64,000 nucleotides of DNA from Patescibacteria group bacterium (GTDB lineage Bacteria > Patescibacteriota > Microgenomatia > UBA10105 > UBA927): contig DATKGN010000004.1 of the NCBI GenBank assembly GCA_035510735.1, positions 243,810 to 307,809 of the forward strand. The letters run 5' to 3'. Position numbers and translations under genes: made by a program. Positions 5,586 through 43,062 of this stretch are shown one piece after another. The notes under the pieces are model-generated. The model was not told where the DNA came from. It did no database searches and worked only from the letters and a program-made list of their open reading frames with translations. The stretch's first letter is position 1. Each line of letters begins with the position of its first letter.

Positions 5586-6131
5586 ATGCCAATCTATACC
5601 CGTACCGGAGATGCAGGTACTACAGCGCTTTTTGGCGGCAAGCGGGTGTTAAAATCCGAAGCCCTTGTTGACGTCTACGGATCCGTTGACGAATTAAACA
5701 GTTGGGTTGGACTTATTACCTCACAGATGAAAGAGACTCATCTTATAAAACTTTTTTCGGAAATTCAGTCGGATTTATTTTCCGTTGGCGGGTGTCTTGC
5801 TGGATGGAAGACAGAATTGAATATGCTTGAGACGCGTGTTACACAAATGGAAGTTGAGATTGATGCAATGGAAAAAGAATTGCCGCCGCTTACAAATTTT
5901 ATTCTTCCCGGGGGATCACAGCTCGCAAGTCAGATCCACGTTGTCAGAAGTGTTTGCCGGCGCGTTGAGAGACAGGTTGTTGCACTTACCAAAACACAAA
6001 CGGTTGACCCGCGCATTATCAAATATTTAAATCGGTTATCCGACTTGTGTTTTATGCTCGCACGGTTTATAAATAAAAACGAACATGCTGAGGAAGTAGT
6101 GTGGTCTGGAATTCCAAGGCAGAAAAAATAA
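5586..6131 (+). CDS. pduO: PduO-type ATP:cob(I)alamin adenosyltransferase
   Basis: N-terminal IYTRTGDAGTTALFGG signature of PduO-type corrinoid adenosyltransferases (EC 2.5.1.17). About 180 aa. Confidence 0.8.
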   Translation: MPIYTRTGDAGTTALFGGKRVLKSEALVDVYGSVDELNSWVGLITSQMKETHLIKLFSEIQSDLFSVGGCLAGWKTELNMLETRVTQMEVEIDAMEKELPPLTNFILPGGSQLASQIHVVRSVCRRVERQVVALTKTQTVDPRIIKYLNRLSDLCFMLARFINKNEHAEEVVWSGIPRQKK

Positions 6132-6185
6132 AGTAAGGAATCGAGGAACGCTGTGTAAATCAGCGGCTGTGCCGCAACCGTGGGC

Positions 6186-6213
6186 CCCTCCTTCGCGTAA
6201 AGCTTCGGAGGGC
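6186..6213. repeat. Hairpin repeat family 2 copy (CCCTCC-TTCGCGTAAAGCTTC-GGAGGG)
   Basis: Perfect 6 bp stem with a conserved loop. Near-identical copies at 20560-20588, a variant at 30644-30700, and a reverse-orientation copy inside tsaD at 15184-15209. Confidence 0.6.
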
Positions 6214-6258
6214 AAGCCGGGAACTCCTCCTTACCTATTATCCCGAGCAGGAGTTTTT

Positions 6259-9498: not shown

Positions 9499-9936
9499 AT
9501 GAATGACCTGCCTCAGGATGCCCAACAGCCGAAAGCAGCGAGTGCTCCGCCCAGTGCAGTTACGGTTACGCCATCCGGTGCACGGGAAATTGAACCCGGC
9601 GGCACGGCCCCTCGGGAAGGTCTAAAGGATGCGACGGGCAATGAAATGCAAATCCCCAAGGAAGTTGCCTCAGCCGGTGTAAGAGTGCATCCTACGACAA
9701 TCGCAATACCCCAGTCAGTTGCGCAGATGGGTGTGAAGCCGACAGGGAATAATATTCCGGTTCAAACGACAACGAGTGTTGTTTTACCTCTATCCGACGA
9801 TCAAATTGCAACAGGGCTTCACCAAAGTATGACCAATTCGGTGCGGTGGCTTGCAGAATGGTGCGTGAGAAGATTGAAGCAGCTTCATGTTGCTGTAACA
9901 TCAACGCACGGAAAATTGATAAAAGTTAAGGAATAA
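9499..9936 (+). CDS. Hypothetical protein
   Basis: 145 aa ORF between the acidic protein and the TraG-like ATPase. No motifs recognised. Confidence 0.3.
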   Translation: MNDLPQDAQQPKAASAPPSAVTVTPSGAREIEPGGTAPREGLKDATGNEMQIPKEVASAGVRVHPTTIAIPQSVAQMGVKPTGNNIPVQTTTSVVLPLSDDQIATGLHQSMTNSVRWLAEWCVRRLKQLHVAVTSTHGKLIKVKE

Positions 9937-9942
9937 TTATCT

Positions 9943-12303
9943 ATGGACCAACAAATGTCGGGTAAATTATTGGACTTTACATACCGGTTGCAGGTCTTGG
10001 GTATCAGTTTTCTATTGATTGCGGTTTTTGCCGGTGCACTTATTTTATTGGGGTATATCATTTTTTTACTCTGGAAGTACCGAAACCGCGAAGAAGAATC
10101 TCTGGAAACCGTCGTCATGCAGGTCGCGGTACCCCGCGATAATGAGATAAAAATTGATGCGGCAGAACAGATGTTTTCCAGCATCCATAGCATCGCTCAT
10201 GGAGGATTTTGGTCGTTTTTGAAACCGAACGAGCATGTATCGTTTGAAATCGTTGCGAAACCGGAGGATATACGTTTTTATATCGCGGTACCGAAAAAAT
10301 TGACAGATCTCATTGAAAAACAGATTCATGGTGCCTATCCCGGTGCGGATATTAAGGAAGTGGAGGAATATTCTATATTTTCCGAGAACGGGAAAGTCGC
10401 GTTTGCGGGACTCGTGCTCGCAAACGCTGATTATATGCCGATCCGGATTTTTCGGGATTTACCGACCGATCCATTATCATCAATCACCTCAGTTCTTGCA
10501 AAAATGCGCCCCGGGGAGGCAGCCGCAATCCAGGTACTTATCCAGCCGGCTGAGGGCAAATGGCGGGAAAATGGGAGATCCTATATTTCCAAAATAAAAA
10601 AAGACGAATCAAATCCTGAGAAAGCAAGTTTTAAAGTTGACCCGAAATCCCTTGAAGCAATCGAACAAAAAACGAGTAAGCCCGGATTTAATACGGTGAT
10701 CCGTTGTGTCGTATCATCAACAGATCAGGAAACGGCAAAGATGCATTTGGATAATCTTCTTGCCAGTTTGAGTCAGTTTTCTTCGGATCATAATCACCTG
10801 ACGAAAGTAAAATTGCCGTTTAAACAATTATTTATGGTGGACTTTGTCTATCGGTATTTTCCGATCATGAATTTTCCGTTGTTTAAACAATTCAGCGTTC
10901 TCAATAGCGATGAGCTCGCTAGTGTATTTCATTTTCCCAATAAGTCAATCGAGACGGCACACATTTTTTGGCTCAACGCAAAGAGGGCACCCGCGCCATC
11001 TCAAATTCCGATGAGCGGTATGTTTTTGGGCAGATCCCGGTATCGTGGAGTTGAGCGGCCGATTTATATTGACGAAGAAGATCGACGACGGCACATGTAC
11101 ATTATCGGAAAAACCGGTACAGGTAAATCGCAACTTCTCGAAGAGATGATTGTGCAGGATATAAAAGAAAATAAAGGAATCGCGGTTATCGATCCGCACG
11201 GAGATCTCATCGACGGCGTCATGAGCAGAATCCCGGCGTCACGGGCGGAAGACGTTATCTATTTTGACCCATCGGATTCCGATCGGCCGCTTGGGCTCAA
11301 TATGCTTGAGGCAAAGACCGAAGAACAAAAGCATTTTGTCGTTACATCAATCGTCGGGCTTATGTATAAGCTCTATGATCCTATGAAGACCGGAATCATC
11401 GGTCCCCGATTTGAACATGCCATCCGAAACGCGATGCTGACCGTCATGGTGGAACCCGGAAACACATTTGTTGAGGTCGTCCGCGTACTTACAGATGCCG
11501 CATTCGTTCAGGAATTATTGCCGAAACTGACGGATCCGATTATTCGTCGTTATTGGACGGATCAGATCGCACAGACGGCGGATTTTCATAAATCAGAGGT
11601 ATTGGATTACATCGTCTCTAAGTTCGGCCGTTTCGTTACAAATAAGCTGATGCGTAATATCATCGGCCAGTCGCAATCATCATACGATTTCCGGAAAGTG
11701 ATGGATGACGGAAAAATATTATTAGTTAATCTGGCTAAAGGGAAAATCGGAGAGGAAAACAGTAATTTTCTGGGACTTATCCTTGTCCCGCGGATTCTTA
11801 TTGCCGCAATGAGCAGACAGGAAATTCCTGAGGAAACACGGCGCGATTTTTACTTATACGTTGACGAGTTTCAAAATTTTGCAACTCCGGATTTTGCCCA
11901 GATTCTTTCCGAAGCCCGAAAATACCGGTTAAATCTTATTGTCGCGAACCAATTCATCGGTCAGATGGAAGAAGAGGTAAAAAACGCGGTATTTGGAAAC
12001 GTGGGATCAGTGATCGCATTCCGGGTCGGCGTTACTGATGCGAATTATCTTCAACATGAATTCCAACCGACGTTTAATGAAGCGGACCTCATTAATATAG
12101 ATAAATTTAATGCGTATATGAAAACAAACGTGAGAAACGAGCCGGTCAAACCGTTTAGCATGGATTTGACGAAAGATATGACAAAAATTAACGCAGAAAA
12201 AAATGAAAAGATAGCGGAAGCGATTATTCAATTATCACGATTAAAATACGGGCGTTCAAAGGAATTGGTTGAGGCTGAAATATCGCATCGCGCGAGGCTA
12301 TAA
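9943..12303 (+). CDS. TraG/VirD4/TraD-like coupling-protein-family ATPase, membrane anchored
   Basis: N-terminal TM helix. Walker A IIGKTGTGKSQL, a DPHGD box (compare DPKGD/E of T4CPs), Walker B LYVDEFQNF. 786 aa. Confidence 0.6.
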   Translation: MDQQMSGKLLDFTYRLQVLGISFLLIAVFAGALILLGYIIFLLWKYRNREEESLETVVMQVAVPRDNEIKIDAAEQMFSSIHSIAHGGFWSFLKPNEHVSFEIVAKPEDIRFYIAVPKKLTDLIEKQIHGAYPGADIKEVEEYSIFSENGKVAFAGLVLANADYMPIRIFRDLPTDPLSSITSVLAKMRPGEAAAIQVLIQPAEGKWRENGRSYISKIKKDESNPEKASFKVDPKSLEAIEQKTSKPGFNTVIRCVVSSTDQETAKMHLDNLLASLSQFSSDHNHLTKVKLPFKQLFMVDFVYRYFPIMNFPLFKQFSVLNSDELASVFHFPNKSIETAHIFWLNAKRAPAPSQIPMSGMFLGRSRYRGVERPIYIDEEDRRRHMYIIGKTGTGKSQLLEEMIVQDIKENKGIAVIDPHGDLIDGVMSRIPASRAEDVIYFDPSDSDRPLGLNMLEAKTEEQKHFVVTSIVGLMYKLYDPMKTGIIGPRFEHAIRNAMLTVMVEPGNTFVEVVRVLTDAAFVQELLPKLTDPIIRRYWTDQIAQTADFHKSEVLDYIVSKFGRFVTNKLMRNIIGQSQSSYDFRKVMDDGKILLVNLAKGKIGEENSNFLGLILVPRILIAAMSRQEIPEETRRDFYLYVDEFQNFATPDFAQILSEARKYRLNLIVANQFIGQMEEEVKNAVFGNVGSVIAFRVGVTDANYLQHEFQPTFNEADLINIDKFNAYMKTNVRNEPVKPFSMDLTKDMTKINAEKNEKIAEAIIQLSRLKYGRSKELVEAEISHRARL

Positions 12304-13839: not shown

Positions 13840-13911
13840 GGAGCCGTAGCTCAGCGGTAGAGCGCTACTCTTATAAAGTAGATGTCCTTGGTCCGAATCC
13901 AAGCGGCTCCA
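13840..13911 (+). tRNA. tRNA-Ile, anticodon UAU (TAT)
   Basis: Folded by hand. Acceptor stem GGAGCCG/CGGCTCC is a perfect 7 bp; D arm GCTC-AGCGGTA-GAGC; anticodon stem CTACT/AGTAG with loop CUUAUAA (U33, A37); variable loop 5 nt; T arm CTTGG-TCCGAAT-CCAAG; discriminator A. CCA is not encoded. Confidence 0.8.
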
Positions 13912-13912
13912 C

Positions 13913-14437: not shown

Positions 14438-15622
14438 ATCAGGAACTGCCGTGATATCGTGCCAGTTGGTGGGCGAACCCCTGAAATACGCATAGCTTGC
14501 AATATATACGGCGTTATCGGTGCACAGTGCTACCGGTGGCACAAACATTGTTATATTGTTATATTGTTTTATTGCTGAGTTCATTTTTTCTCTTAGCCGC
14601 AGATTAGCGGCAACGCCTCCCGATAAAAGAATTGATTTCGCCTGATGTATAGAAGCTGCATGGAGAGTTTTTTTCACCAGCACATCCGTTATGGACTCCT
14701 GGACTTCATAGGCTAATGCGCTTGTCATTCCGGCCTCCGAGCTGGAATCTATTTTTTTCGGGGTGGATCCCGGGTCAAGCTCGCCTCGCTGACGCGGCGA
14801 AGCGGGCCCGGGATGACATTTATTCCATTCTCGAAGAACCGCAGTTTTCAGTCCCGAAAAGGAAAAATTAAGCGATTTATCATGCATTAACGGACGCGGT
14901 AACTTAATTCTTCCCGTTGTCATTCCGGCCTCTGAGCCGGAATCTATTTTTTTCGGGGTGGATCCCGGGTCAAGCCCGGGATGACATTGAGAGGCCGCTT
15001 CCTGAATTGCCGGTCCTCCGCGGTTTTCAAATCCCAACAGTCTCGCCGTTTTATCAAACGCTTCTCCCGCCGCGTCATCGAGCGTACCTCCGAGCCATGT
15101 TAAATCCTTAATAGATTTCATGAGATAAAGCTCAGTATGACCGCCGCTAACGACAAGAGAGATGGCGGGAAACTCGATGCTTGCCCCGCGAAGCTTTAGC
15201 GAAGTGGGGTTGTCCCTCGACTGCGCTCGGGACGAATTTTGTCCTTCGTCATTGCTCAGGACAAAATTCGCATACATGTGGGCGAGAACGTGATTAACGG
15301 GGATGAGGGGTTTACCGGTCGTAAACGCAATTGTTTTTGCCGTTTCAACGCCGACGAGAAGAGAGCCGATGAGTCCCGGTCCGACGGTGATTGCGATTTG
15401 ATCGATCGATGCAAGCGTTTCCTTTGATTGTTTAAGGGCTTCTTCAATTGTCGGGATAATGCAGACAAGCTGCTCGCGCGCAGCCACTTCAGGGACGATG
15501 CCGCCGTATTTTGCGTGCATGAGTGTCGAACTTGCAACAACACTTCCCAGGATTGTTGTACCGTTCTCAACAACGGCCGCCGCCGTTTCATCGCAGGATG
15601 ATTCTATACTCAAAATTTTCAT
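14417..15622 (-). CDS. tsaD: tRNA N6-adenosine threonylcarbamoyltransferase TsaD, with three in-frame repeat-element insertions
   Basis: MKILSIESSCDETAAAV...HAKYGGIVPEVAAREQ and SGGHTELY core motifs. 401 aa, above the ~335 aa I recall for TsaD (from memory). The extra peptides coincide with the palindromic DNA elements. Confidence 0.88.
   Translation of the reverse strand: MKILSIESSCDETAAAVVENGTTILGSVVASSTLMHAKYGGIVPEVAAREQLVCIIPTIEEALKQSKETLASIDQIAITVGPGLIGSLLVGVETAKTIAFTTGKPLIPVNHVLAHMYANFVLSNDEGQNSSRAQSRDNPTSLKLRGASIEFPAISLVVSGGHTELYLMKSIKDLTWLGGTLDDAAGEAFDKTARLLGFENRGGPAIQEAASQCHPGLDPGSTPKKIDSGSEAGMTTGRIKLPRPLMHDKSLNFSFSGLKTAVLREWNKCHPGPASPRQRGELDPGSTPKKIDSSSEAGMTSALAYEVQESITDVLVKKTLHAASIHQAKSILLSGGVAANLRLREKMNSAIKQYNNITMFVPPVALCTDNAVYIASYAYFRGSPTNWHDITAVPDLSVEKI
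14723..14818. repeat. MITE-like palindromic element family 1, copy B (96 bp), in frame within tsaD
   Basis: Termini TGTCATTCC...GGGATGACA. Internal hairpins TTCCGGC/GCTGGAA and ATCCCGGG/CCCGGGAT. Has a 28 bp extra hairpin relative to copy A. Translates as ...CHPGPASPRQRGELDPGSTPKKIDSSSEAGMT. Confidence 0.75.
14919..14986. repeat. MITE-like palindromic element family 1, copy A (68 bp), in frame within tsaD
   Basis: Same termini and hairpins as copy B, near-identical. Translates as CHPGLDPGSTPKKIDSGSEAGMT. Confidence 0.75.
15184..15275. repeat. Composite hairpin insertion inside tsaD (family-2 loop motif plus two further palindromes)
   Basis: Contains CCCCGCGAAGCTTTAGCGAAGTGGGG (reverse complement of the family-2 loop), GTCCCTCGACTGCGCTCGGGAC, and the 11 bp stem GAATTTTGTCC...GGACAAAATTC. 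Encodes the extra TsaD segment VLSNDEGQNSSRAQSRDNPTSLKLRG between HMYANF and FPAISLVVSGGHTELY. Confidence 0.6.
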
Positions 15623-30643: not shown

Positions 30644-30700
30644 CCCCCTTCGCAAATGGCTTCCGCCTTCGCTAAAGCTTCGTCGGACAAGTCGGGCGGA
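30644..30700. repeat. Hairpin repeat family 2, tandem degenerate variant
   Basis: CCTTCGCAAATGGCTTCCG followed by CCTTCGCTAAAGCTTCG, flanked by CCGCC...GGGCGG. Confidence 0.45.
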
Positions 30701-40604: not shown

Positions 40605-41444
40605 TTATGTCGGGAGTGTAAACAGCGTCCGGGCGTTTTTGGTTGTTTGCTCTTCTACTTCAGTGTAGGGGATATTGAGCAATTCCGCAATTTTGTGGGC
40701 CACGAGCGGAATGTTTTTGGGTTCATTCCGCTGCCCGCGGTGGGGGATGGGGGTCAAATACGGCGAATCGGTTTCCAAAAGTATCATAGAAAGCGGGATT
40801 GACGGGACAATGAGTTGCAGTTGTTTTGAAAAGGTGAGATTGCCGTCGATGCCGACAAATAGATTTCTTCGTTTCGCTTCACGAAGGTCCTGAAGCCCGC
40901 CGGAGAAACAATGAATGACCCCTCGCGGCATGGTTGGGACATTGTCCATGACGTCAAAGAAGTCTTCATACGCATCGCGGCAGTGCATGATCACCGGCAG
41001 ATTATGGTTGAGGGCAATGCGGAGTTGTTCCTCAAACAGAATTTTTTGTTCCTGTTTTTTCCCGGCGGCCACCTCGCCCTTAAATAAATGGTAATCCAGG
41101 CCGATCTCGCCGATTGCTATTATTGTCATTCCAGGCTTGACCTGGAATCCATCTTTGTTATTGCCCGAATCGGGATCCCGGATCGGGGTCCGGGATGACA
41201 ATATTAATTGTTCAAGAGCGTTAAGATCGTGTTCATGTGACGCTTCATATGGGTGAAAGCCGATACTTGCGAAAACAACACCAGCATTATTTCTCGCAAG
41301 TTGTATTGCAAGCGTCGAAGAAAACATATCAACGCCGGGACAGATAAACTGTTTGACCCCGGCTTTTTTGGCATTCCCGATGACCATGGCACGGTCGTCA
41401 TTGAACTGTTCAAACATGAGGTGACAGTGGGTGTCGATGAACAT
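40605..41444 (-). CDS. tatD: TatD-family metal-dependent hydrolase/DNase, with an in-frame repeat insertion
   Basis: MFIDTHCHL start and IAIGEIGLDY. The tracked ORF extends to 41582 through repeat copy D; the likely true start is ATG 41444. A 25-residue insert is encoded by repeat copy C. Confidence 0.78.
   Translation of the reverse strand: MFIDTHCHLMFEQFNDDRAMVIGNAKKAGVKQFICPGVDMFSSTLAIQLARNNAGVVFASIGFHPYEASHEHDLNALEQLILSSRTPIRDPDSGNNKDGFQVKPGMTIIAIGEIGLDYHLFKGEVAAGKKQEQKILFEEQLRIALNHNLPVIMHCRDAYEDFFDVMDNVPTMPRGVIHCFSGGLQDLREAKRRNLFVGIDGNLTFSKQLQLIVPSIPLSMILLETDSPYLTPIPHRGQRNEPKNIPLVAHKIAELLNIPYTEVEEQTTKNARTLFTLPT
41124..41200. repeat. MITE-like palindromic element family 1, copy C (77 bp), in frame within tatD
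   Basis: TGTCATTCC-AGGCTTGACCTGGAATC...ATCCCGGATCGGGGTCCGGGATGACA. Encodes SRTPIRDPDSGNNKDGFQVKPGMT. Confidence 0.7.
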
Positions 41445-41473
41445 ATATTTTATTGTCATTCCCGCGAAGGCGG

Positions 41474-41540
41474 GAATCTCGAATTCAAAAACTGGATCCC
41501 CGATCAGGTCAGGGATGACATTATTATTGAATCCTCGGGA
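41474..41540. repeat. MITE-like palindromic element family 1, copy D (67 bp), at the metG 3' end / tatD 5' junction
   Basis: TGTCATTCC-CGCGAAGGCGGGAATC...GGATCCCCGATCAGGTCAGGGATGACA. Overlaps the last about 17 nt of the metG ORF. Confidence 0.7.
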
Positions 41541-43062
41541 ACAAGGGCGGCTGGGATGTAATAGGTGTCCCTTGCTGAACATTTACCCAGCTGTCTTTAT
41601 AATTGGGATTTTTCGTCAATAACGCTTTACTGCCTAATATTGTTGCGATTTTTTGGGCCGTTGCCGGCAGAAAGGGATATATTTGCCACGCGACCTGATT
41701 TAGGCTGTCTGCCAAACCATATAATACCCAGTTAAGAGATTTTTTATCGGTTTTTGCTAATCGCCATGGTTGATTGACGTCAATATATTTATCAGCCTCT
41801 TTTATGAAATTCCAAATAGCTGTTAACCCTTCACTAAATTGGTACGCTTGTATGGCACGATCGAAATCAGACCATGCCTTTTTCCAATTATATATGTGTT
41901 CATCGGTCCGTAACGGGTGGGTTTCCGGATCCTGATCGATTGTTGGGATTTTTCCCTCGCAATACTTATCTATCATCGTGGTAATGCGGCTGGTAATATT
42001 GCCTAATCCATTCGCGAGATCTGCATTATACAATTCTTTAAATCTTCGTTCGGAAAAATCACCGTCACTGGTTGACGGAATTTCGCGCAAAAAATAATAG
42101 CGTACGGGGTCGGCTCCATATTTATTTATTAATTCGACCGGATCAATCACGTTGCCGAGGGTTTTACTCATTTTTTGGCCGTTTAATGTGAAATATCCGT
42201 GAATGAATACGGATTTTGGTAGTTTGAGTCCTGCGGAAAGTAAAAATGCCGGCCAGTAGACCGTATGAAACCGGTTAATACCTTTGCCGATCATATGTAC
42301 ATCGGCCGGCCACCATTTCTTGTATTTTTCATCATTCCACCCGAATCCGACGCCGGATTGATAAATGTTTAAGGCATCAAACCAGACGTACATCCTCTGT
42401 GTTGGATCTTCGGGAACTGGGACGCCCCAATTTTTTGCGCGTGCATTACTTCGGGAAACACTTATATTCAACAAAGGTTGTTTAAGAAAAGAAAGAATTT
42501 CATTTTTCCGGAAATCCGGAATAATTTTTATCGTATCTTCCGAGATAAGTTTGATGAGCTGTTTCTGATATGAGGAGAGGCGGAAAAAATAATTTTCCTC
42601 TTTCACCGTTTCCAATTTTTTTCCGGGGTGTTCGAAACATTCGCCGTTTTCATTGAGTTCATCTTTCGTATAAAATGCTTCACATCCGACACAATATAAT
42701 CCTTCATATGATTTTTTATAAATATCTTTTTTACACAAGTTCCACAGTTTCTGGCTTGCTTTGAAATGGTGGTAGACGTCGCTTCCTTTTTGCCAGACGT
42801 TGAAATCGCAGTTTAAGGCCTTCGTTAAATCGAAAAATTTCTGCGTATTATCGTCAATAAATTTTTGCACCGGAACGCCTGCTTTCTCCGCGGCCTGAAC
42901 ATTTTTGAGGGCGTTTTCATCTCCGCCCGAGAGGAGGAGTGTCTCATCTCCTAATAATTTGTGATAGCGGGCGACAACGTCTCCCTGCACGAATTCGAGC
43001 GCGTGCCCGATGTGTGGAGCTGCATTGACGTAGGGGATAGAGCAGGTGACGTAGAATTTCAT
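41524..43062 (-). CDS. metG: Methionine--tRNA ligase
   Basis: HIGH motif (PYVNAAPHIGHA), KMSKTLGN (KMSKS), and zinc knuckle CVGCEAFYTKDELNENGEC. Confidence 0.92.
   Translation of the reverse strand: MKFYVTCSIPYVNAAPHIGHALEFVQGDVVARYHKLLGDETLLLSGGDENALKNVQAAEKAGVPVQKFIDDNTQKFFDLTKALNCDFNVWQKGSDVYHHFKASQKLWNLCKKDIYKKSYEGLYCVGCEAFYTKDELNENGECFEHPGKKLETVKEENYFFRLSSYQKQLIKLISEDTIKIIPDFRKNEILSFLKQPLLNISVSRSNARAKNWGVPVPEDPTQRMYVWFDALNIYQSGVGFGWNDEKYKKWWPADVHMIGKGINRFHTVYWPAFLLSAGLKLPKSVFIHGYFTLNGQKMSKTLGNVIDPVELINKYGADPVRYYFLREIPSTSDGDFSERRFKELYNADLANGLGNITSRITTMIDKYCEGKIPTIDQDPETHPLRTDEHIYNWKKAWSDFDRAIQAYQFSEGLTAIWNFIKEADKYIDVNQPWRLAKTDKKSLNWVLYGLADSLNQVAWQIYPFLPATAQKIATILGSKALLTKNPNYKDSWVNVQQGTPITSQPPLFPRIQ

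Follow-up and report, generated by a model that had tools for sequence, protein, structure and literature searches.

What kind of DNA has entered tatD in frame, has also filled the spacer between tatD and metG, and forms hairpins whose two arms change together? This question is raised by a locus on contig DATKGN010000004.1 of a Patescibacteria group bacterium (assembly GCA_035510735.1), which we analyzed within a stretch of 64,000 nt (positions 243,810 to 307,809 of the contig), referred to below as the window. The element is present in four copies, A to D: A and B lie within tsaD, C lies within tatD, and D lies in the metG-tatD spacer. Judged by their sequences, copies C and D are head-to-head dimers of TGTC-tagged repetitive extragenic palindromic (REP) hairpins that belong to the CGTC-tagged REP superfamily, with a monomer that is an Ssn-related motif (SRM). 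The explanation that we regard as very probable as a whole is that the elements are such dimers, with copy C translated as a loop of TatD, copy D occupying the spacer, and an upkeep of the Ssn type, which we infer.

Each dimer consists of two inverted hairpins with the TGTC tags on the outside. The left hairpin reads TGTC-AT-TCC-NNN-loop-NNN-GGA-AT-C on the plus strand and the right hairpin reads TGTC-AT-CCC-NNN-loop-NNN-GGG-AT-C on the minus strand, and every monomer has a GTC tag that stays unpaired, 8 bp of stem beginning with A-T and T-A, a loop of 4–6 nt, and then a C. In the window the 8-bp stems are ATTCCNNN/NNNGGAAT and ATCCCNNN/NNNGGGAT, TGTC stands directly before the stem in all eight half-sites, GTC and the trailing C are present in 8/8, and the spacers between monomers are ∼16–25 nt long. 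The loop is GAAG (4 nt) in the left half of D, 5 nt long in C-left, B-right and D-right, and 6 nt long in A-left, B-left and C-right, while that of A-right is enlarged by a nested insertion; GAAA, GAAG and CTTGA are the commonest loops when the wider sample is considered. DNA folding predicts two hairpins per element (z = −4.8 for C, −4.5 for B and −1.8 for D), and RNA folding also gives two hairpins, with a terminal stem that closes a Y shape.

We trained a covariance model (CM), R1, on 123 right-half monomers, of which other genomes supplied 120, with no left halves in the training set. When the 64 kb were scanned with filters off, R1 found exactly eight sites (E 2e-7 to 8e-4), with the next match at E = 0.27, and these eight sites are the left and right halves of A to D in inverted pairs, which gives four dimers and no singletons. 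Since R1 finds left halves on which it was not trained, both halves are one motif, and what appear to be 'terminal inverted repeats' are the tags and outer stems of two hairpins. The first-pass annotation, which had been made from the sequence alone, had assigned the elements to one repeat family and had proposed a covariance model scan; the four copies do align, and the scan returned all of their halves and nothing else. It had also described a unit with conserved termini and a GGAATC / GGATCCC core; the termini and GGAATC / GATCCC are indeed conserved, while the unit is better described as a head-to-head REP dimer. The seed pattern matched three times in the window against 0.06 matches expected. 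Two further assemblies of this organism contain both C and D and match the region at 100% identity, so neither copy is an assembly artefact.

Across the four copies, the stem of hairpin 1 varies as GGC/GCC, AGG/CCT and CGC/GCG with its pairing preserved, exactly as first described, and the changes in hairpin 2 are also compensatory. The covariation was measured on the 123 right-half monomers, which are distinct, come from more than 20 phylum-level lineages, and were collected by a search that fixed only TGTCATCCC and left the 3′ arm and the three inner pairs free. Pairing was preserved in 90.3% of cells, compared with 76.7% when partners were shuffled, and the covariation score was 0.256 compared with 0.062; in both cases 0 of 500 shuffles reached the observed value, so the covariation stays significant as copies are added, which had been the open condition on the earlier claim. 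Changes on both sides of the stem account for 106 cells, and shifting the partner by 1–3 columns lowers pairing to 18–51%. Pairs 1 and 2 are AU/UA in 116 and 121 of the copies, the inner pairs are of several types (pair 11/30: CG 52, UA 22, GC 11, AU 2; pair 13/28: CG 53, AU 29, GC 20, UA 9), and the non-pairs come mostly from a single subfamily that has a tandem G.A/A.G motif. At least 90% of the copies have a C directly behind the stem, a position that the search did not fix, and the commonest tails are CCAG and CCAT. At the level of these alignments, the covariation shows that propagation or persistence of the family depends on the hairpin, and it carries no evidence of a host function for each copy: because the copies are paralogues of a proliferating family, it speaks for the family. 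The first reading of the pattern, that the secondary structure is under selection, is upheld to this extent but does not extend to the function of individual copies in the host. The hairpin is most likely a single-stranded DNA (ssDNA) recognition structure needed for propagation. The positions of the four copies, their monomers and their host genes are collected in the table.

Table. Repeat dimers, their monomers and host genes in the window (window coordinates).
Feature	Position	Strand	Remarks
Copy C, two REP hairpins with TGTC tags, dimerized head to head	41123..41201	+	in frame in tatD, TatD residues 82-108
C left monomer, TGTC-ATTCCAGG-CTTGA-CCTGGAAT-C	41123..41155	+	CM R1 25.1 bits, E = 5.7e-5; outside training set
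C right monomer, TGTC-ATCCCGGA-...-TCCGGGAT-C	41168..41201	-	CM R1 32.9 bits; SRM regex match 41171-41200
tatD, TatD family hydrolase, 279 aa, host of copy C	40605..41444	-	Pfam PF01026 E = 6.7e-70; NCBI-annotated P0001 100% identical
Copy D, head-to-head REP dimer filling the metG-tatD spacer	41453..41521	+	2-3 nt to metG stop, 8 nt to tatD ATG
D left monomer, TTGTCATTCCCGCGAAGGCGGGAATCTCG	41453..41484	+	CM 32.7 bits; SRM regex match 41454-41481
D right monomer	41489..41521	-	CM 33.4 bits; gene-sense hairpin then CCAGUUUUUG
metG, methionyl-tRNA synthetase, 512 aa	41524..43062	-	Pfam; TAA stop 41524-41526
Spurious 46-codon upstream extension of the tatD open reading frame	41445..41582	-	reads through copy D, overlaps metG 3′ end
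Copy A, REP dimer in frame in tsaD	14722..14819	+	∼27 nt extra insertion in right-hairpin loop
Copy B, REP dimer in frame in tsaD	14917..14987	+	TsaD insert residues 212-239 relative to PDB 8iey

Copy C begins with TTGTCATTCC and ends with GGGATGACAA (also given as TTGTCATTCCAGGCTTGACCTGGAATCC...GGGATCCCGGATCGGGGTCCGGGATGACAA). The element is 79 nt long, and 81 nt, or 27 codons, are added in frame to tatD, directly ahead of IAIGEIGLDY on the minus strand; its in-frame position before this peptide had been recognized from the start, the ends first assigned to it being 41124-41200 and the first estimate about 25 residues. The closest relative, the syntenic locus L003 (82–85% nucleotide identity), encodes a TatD without copy C and reads LEKLIDSS-VVAIGEIGLDY where the window reads LEQLI-[LSSRTPIRDPDSGNNKDGFQVKPGMTI]-IAIGEIGLDY. 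When the protein is aligned with solved TatD structures in the PDB, both flanks align and query residues 71–106 have no counterpart. In an AlphaFold2 model of TatD (mean pLDDT 86.9), residues 85–107 are coil, with pLDDT below 50 at residues 89–102, and this coil sits between a helix (residues 74–84) and a strand (residues 108–117). Since the insert is missing from L003, has no counterpart in the solved structures and is disordered in the model, copy C is, by sequence comparison, a genuine in-frame insertion in tatD, which is predicted to form a disordered loop of the TIM barrel. Loops that lead from helix to strand lie on the face of a TIM barrel opposite the catalytic ends of the strands, and the TatD loop would be placed there too.

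The same comparisons bear on whether the 27 residues could instead be an ancestral, functional loop of TatD whose likeness to the repeat at the DNA level is coincidental or secondary. At this very loop, extra residues that differ from one protein to the next are present in many Microgenomates TatD orthologues, several of them ending in GMT, which would fit a variable position of long standing, but these GMT endings are the translated GGAATGACA end of the repeat. In addition, the nearest relative and the solved structures lack the 27 residues, the two halves of copy C match the structured repeat model (E = 3e-7 and 6e-5), tsaD reads this same DNA in another frame, and the segment is predicted to be disordered. 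With an empty site and the covariance model matches, a native origin is effectively refuted, and we assign it practically no probability. The extra residues in the other orthologues suggest, as far as their sequences go, repeated colonization of the loop or decay of older copies. At locus L124 of a relative (10310-10345), the same TatD loop holds a short tandem repeat (ACAACCT units, encoding TTYNLQPTT) and no REP dimer, so the loop accepts other kinds of insertion too. The names given by the source databases to the TatD homologues place the genome of the window near Gottesmanbacteria/Microgenomates. Inserts of about 25 residues that derive from such dimers can pass for lineage-specific protein features.

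The two dimers in tsaD give further evidence that it is the DNA that is conserved. Relative to PDB 8iey, TsaD has three inserts, of which two are copies B and A (the latter at residues 265–301) and the third comes from a different repeat. The 5′ end of the repeat is read as CHPG in copies A and B and as LSSR in copy C, and this difference in frame means that the DNA rather than the peptide is conserved. All three intragenic copies end in GGA-ATG-ACA, giving GMT, where the neighbouring frame would give TGA, and their inserts have lengths that are multiples of three, contain no stop codons and keep the frame open. Together, the frame differences and the GMT ends fit a repeat at the DNA level whose insertions have been screened by selection for an open frame that stays in register. 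A further alternative is that the inserts never reach the mature product, being excised from the mRNA like an intron or from the protein like an intein, such that TatD and TsaD are made without them. The rRNA genes of the candidate phyla radiation (CPR) are known for insertions that are removed after transcription, and the element is strongly structured, which lends this idea a precedent. Nonetheless, an element of 70–100 nt with two simple hairpins, no match to an Rfam intron or ribozyme family and no intein motifs is a poor candidate for excision, and an open, stop-free frame in three intragenic copies would be needless if the inserts were excised; inserts of the Rickettsia palindromic element (RPE) type are also treated as translated in-frame fusions in the literature (PMC10969869). 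We consider excision extremely improbable.

Copy D, which runs from TTGTCATTCCCGCGAAGGCGGGAATCTCG to GGATCCCCGATCAGGTCAGGGATGACAT, is purely intergenic. It had first been placed at 41474-41540, ∼20 nt away from its real span, and had been thought to straddle the metG stop and possibly to supply it, but the TAA lies 2–3 nt beyond the element. Comparison with a metG orthologue speaks against such a role as well: at locus L124, metG ends in the identical PPLFPRIQ*, which is followed by 10 nt, a dimer of the same class in the opposite orientation, 9 nt, and the tatD ATG. Because the same C-terminus there precedes a different element, the metG stop and C-terminus are native, and because the dimer at this site is a different one, the spacer has been colonized more than once. 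The suspicion that copy D creates a spurious 46-codon extension of tatD was correct. Read from 41582, the open reading frame (ORF) has 325 codons, as called by ENA and Logan, while the NCBI annotation gives 279 residues and all TatD orthologues begin with MF/YIDTHCHL, so that the extension is spurious and the true ATG lies at 41442-41444. Dimers of this kind can thus mislead annotation, here through a false N-terminal extension, with two of the tatD gene calls giving 325 residues instead of 279. At the site of copy D, locus L003 has a run of exactly 100 N (9874-9973) that separates the metG end (…QPPL) from the ATG of tatD and resembles a gap left in scaffolding by a repeat; dimers probably also break assemblies, as at this gap.

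The placement of copy D brings up the possibility that the elements are RNA elements selected by the host, acting as a stabilizer or terminator at the metG 3′ end in the case of D and as pausing or folding signals in tatD and tsaD. Copy D starts 3 nt past the metG stop, and the first hairpin on the sense strand, which is followed by CCAGUUUUUG and begins 8 nt past the stop, resembles a terminator, though as a consensus match only. The sense-strand RNA of the elements is predicted to fold into a Y shape (z = −2.5 to −5.0), the two imperfect pairs in the window (in A-left and D-right) are G.U on the tagged strand, and most REPs are located directly downstream of ORFs, where an action at the RNA level has been proposed for them (PMC3733652). 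On the other hand, both orientations relative to genes occur, with the L124 dimer reversed at the same site, the family is found in many unrelated contexts and phyla, G.U shows no excess over A.C, and SsnA, the nuclease that recognizes the related motif in Neisseria, binds it as ssDNA and not as RNA. The terminator-like consensus match itself (sense strand 41516-41496, then CCAGTTTTTG) is weak, with five T in eight positions, and there are two such sites in the region against 0.8 expected. An RNA role could be a secondary, exapted one for copy D, which would possibly double as a weak terminator behind metG or as a hairpin at the 3′ end of its mRNA, but it leaves the family unexplained, and as an account of the elements we think it unlikely. 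A scan against Rfam found no family at its gathering score; the only weak match, to the Francisella small RNA FtrB, spans copy D (41434-41536, plus strand; 28 bits against a gathering score of 66, E = 0.02), and the FtrB family itself may hold a REP-like pair of hairpins.

We also weighed whether the elements are classical MITEs (miniature transposable elements with inverted repeats), non-autonomous and derived from a DDE transposon (e.g. IS630/Tc1-mariner), with terminal inverted repeats TTGTCAT.../...ATGACAA and a duplicated TA target. Copies C and D are flanked by TA on both sides, the ends are inverted repeats, and a 79-nt element plus 2 nt of target would make up the 81 nt that keep tatD in frame. 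However, copies A and B have no TA flanks, and across 130 copies with flanks the boundaries show direct repeats of 2–5 nt no more often than chance predicts, without enrichment of TA in the flanking dinucleotides. The apparent terminal repeats are the tags and outer stems of independent hairpins, each of which matches the REP/SRM model alone, and neither the window nor the loci showed a transposase with ends of this type. Given that no target-site duplication is present in 130 copies, an IS630-type MITE is rejected and the TA flanks of C and D are incidental; we hold a MITE origin to be very unlikely.

REP dimers with the same exact ends are widespread. We found them at at least 120 loci in species-representative genomes from more than 20 phylum-level lineages; about 20 of the matches listed are in Patescibacteria, and the loci listed include Rickettsiales, other Pseudomonadota, Planctomycetota, Gemmatimonadota, Omnitrophota, Acidobacteriota, Bacteroidota, Chloroflexota and Nitrospirota. 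Among them are Rickettsia and Rickettsiaceae metagenome-assembled genomes (MAGs; L031, L052, L080 and L107). Among the matches listed, 13 of 131 exact-ended dimers lie within ORFs that are open for at least 60 codons on each side, with hosts confirmed by Pfam including PheT (Rickettsiales), TruB, a Wzy-type ligase (Magasanikbacteria), an AddA/UvrD helicase-nuclease (Omnitrophota), an Mrp/Nuo subunit (Rickettsia) and an Eco57I-type methylase. Phages are no obvious vector, with two exact-ended dimers in 2.9 million viral contigs. In a Rickettsiaceae MAG, three tandem REP dimers (L052 37-408 and L080 7545-7923) are spaced ∼140–170 nt apart with near-identical flanks, a clustered arrangement that is unlike the isolated dimers of the window.

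The class to which these dimers belong has been described as CGTC-tagged REPs, with families CGTC-1 to CGTC-4 (Di Nocera, De Gregorio & Rocco, BMC Genomics 2013; PMC3733652). There, the tag is often TGTC or CCTC, the stems are 8–9 bp and start with AT, the loops are 4–5 nt and a 3-nt tail follows; most copies form head-to-head dimers with the tags outside and structured spacers of 20–100 bp, situated closely behind stop codons, and intragenic dimers encode 20–30 residues, while apparent N-terminal copies are really extragenic (PMC3733652). The window dimers match in tag, stem, tail, head-to-head arrangement, placement after a stop codon, the length of peptide encoded by intragenic copies and the extragenic nature of a seemingly N-terminal copy, and most of them also in loop length, a few loops being 1 nt longer. 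They differ in that some loops are 5–6 nt and the spacers are at the short end of the range, and in that three of the four lie within genes whereas CGTC REPs are mostly intergenic. CGTC-1 is dRS3 of Neisseria, and CGTC-1 and CGTC-4 of R. conorii are RPE-6 and RPE-4 (PMC3733652).

Four related systems help to delimit this assignment. RPEs (Ogata et al. 2000/2002, as summarized in PMC10969869 and PMC3733652) are palindromic and are inserted in frame in unrelated housekeeping genes, where they add surface peptides, and in-frame palindromic insertions of this kind are found here as C in TatD and as A and B in TsaD; RPE-1 is, in these accounts, ∼150 bp long and unrelated in sequence, and RPEs are defined within Rickettsia. 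The equivalence with RPE-4 and RPE-6 rests on the statement in PMC3733652 and on the exact-ended dimers in Rickettsia MAGs. REPINs and bacterial interspersed mosaic elements (BIMEs) with their REP-associated tyrosine transposase (RAYT) are similar in that inverted doublets of tagged hairpins are the replicating unit, no target is duplicated, and the partner is a single-copy enzyme specific for ssDNA hairpins, but their tag is GTAG and their enzyme is an IS200/IS605-type tyrosine transposase, whereas every copy here is tagged TGTC. Neisseria intergenic mosaic elements (NIMEs), in which RS repeats are bounded by dRS3, share the hairpin, with ATTCCC-N8-GGGAAT, the dRS3 core, forming its stem, and also share inverted bounding copies; they form large intergenic clusters in Neisseria, unlike the isolated and mostly intragenic dimers of the window.

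The fourth system provides a candidate partner. The Neisseria Transformation Sequence (NTS; CGTCATTCCCGCGMAVGCGGGAATCYRG) and the degenerate SRM are recognized by SsnA, a GIY-YIG ssDNA nuclease, which binds the hairpin only as ssDNA, relies for binding on the C that directly follows the stem, and relies for cutting on the three bases that precede it (Nat Commun 2025; PMC11893778). The gene of such a system is a single-domain GIY-YIG gene of the cd10448 type, typically with the motifs on its flanks. The left monomer of D agrees with the NTS consensus of that paper at 26 of 28 positions, and the SRM regular expression finds three half-sites in the window (14958-14986 on the minus strand, 41171-41200 on the minus strand and 41454-41481 on the plus strand) and nothing else, the other five half-sites missing its strict form. 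GTC and the C are kept, and at locus L091 an ssn-type gene lies between two dimers. The paper leaves out dimers inside genes, RPEs and Patescibacteria, and the role shown for the system, which is to limit transformation in Neisseria, need not hold here. Earlier publications already cover this class of repeat and its dimers, the intragenic copies that stay in frame, and the protein that is the likely partner. What is new is the class in a Patescibacteria lineage and a breadth of phyla beyond the five reported in 2013; we found no paper tying Patescibacteria to REPs, RPEs or Ssn motifs in the literature library that we could search. The locus joins three literatures, on CGTC REPs, on Rickettsia RPEs and on Ssn/NTS, in a phylum for which we found no such report, and it shows one repeat, with its recognition bases, recurring across more than 20 lineages at the phylum level; this adds a useful data point rather than a new principle.

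On these grounds, the dimers would spread or be maintained through ssDNA hairpins recognized by a small Ssn-type GIY-YIG nuclease, with the GTC tag and the trailing C serving as the bases that SsnA uses for cutting and binding, and essential genes would keep only those insertions that are in frame, stop-free and in tolerant loops. Several observations weigh against this account of the elements. No ssn or GIY-YIG gene was detected in the 64-kb window by motif regular expression, tblastn with the L091 protein or Pfam searches of all small, non-overlapping ORFs; a GIY-YIG gene stands beside dimers at only one (L091) of the ∼120 8-kb loci listed; and the L091 nuclease, used as a protein query, matched only PF01541 proteins that their sources name throughout as Bacteroidota (Chitinophagaceae), which is uninformative for Patescibacteria. 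The Ssn paper itself does not settle in what way Ssn cutting would copy or move dimers (PMC11893778). Mismatches on the tagged strand, 10 G.T and 8 A.C, give no strand-specific or RNA-specific signal, and some window loops, at 5–6 nt, are slightly above the 4–5 nt of the 2013 definition. Finally, the empty site in L003 is imperfect, with DSSV in place of the element, which from the sequence suggests either that a small deletion came with the insertion of copy C or that an older copy was lost from L003.

At L091 (608-1387), the GIY-YIG (PF01541) gene encodes 103 residues and lies between two direct 79-nt REP dimers with identical left flanks. The locus is labelled Methylophilus, and the Bacteroidota homologues of its nuclease suggest a binning or labelling problem. 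A broader proposal, that CGTC/TGTC REP dimers in the ultra-small genomes of Patescibacteria are a general and still active source of lineage-specific loops in essential proteins, with their hairpins kept intact within coding sequence by an Ssn-type nuclease of the CPR, draws on the three TsaD inserts and the one TatD insert of the window and on the GMT-ending remnants that many Microgenomates TatD orthologues have in that loop, and is one that we regard as possible but doubtful; if it were true, the RPE phenomenon and the Ssn system would extend to a second large group of symbionts with reduced genomes.

Other features of the window include further repeats within tsaD. The insertion in the right-hairpin loop of copy A (within 14760-14819) is GC-rich and partly palindromic (CTCGCCTCGCTGACGCGGCGAAGCGGGC), and may be a nested repeat. 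The third tsaD insert (15182-15259, minus strand; ∼26 residues, at residues 122–147 relative to PDB 8iey) is made of another kind of palindromic repeat, in which there are three small hairpins, CGTCCCGAGCGCAGTCGAGGGAC among them, and has no match to R1; at 30667-30691, part of one of its arms recurs in inverted form. Elsewhere on the plus strand, the window contains a cobalamin riboswitch (6120-6246; 34.6 bits against a gathering score of 31.5) and a tRNA-Ile with anticodon TAT (13840-13912).

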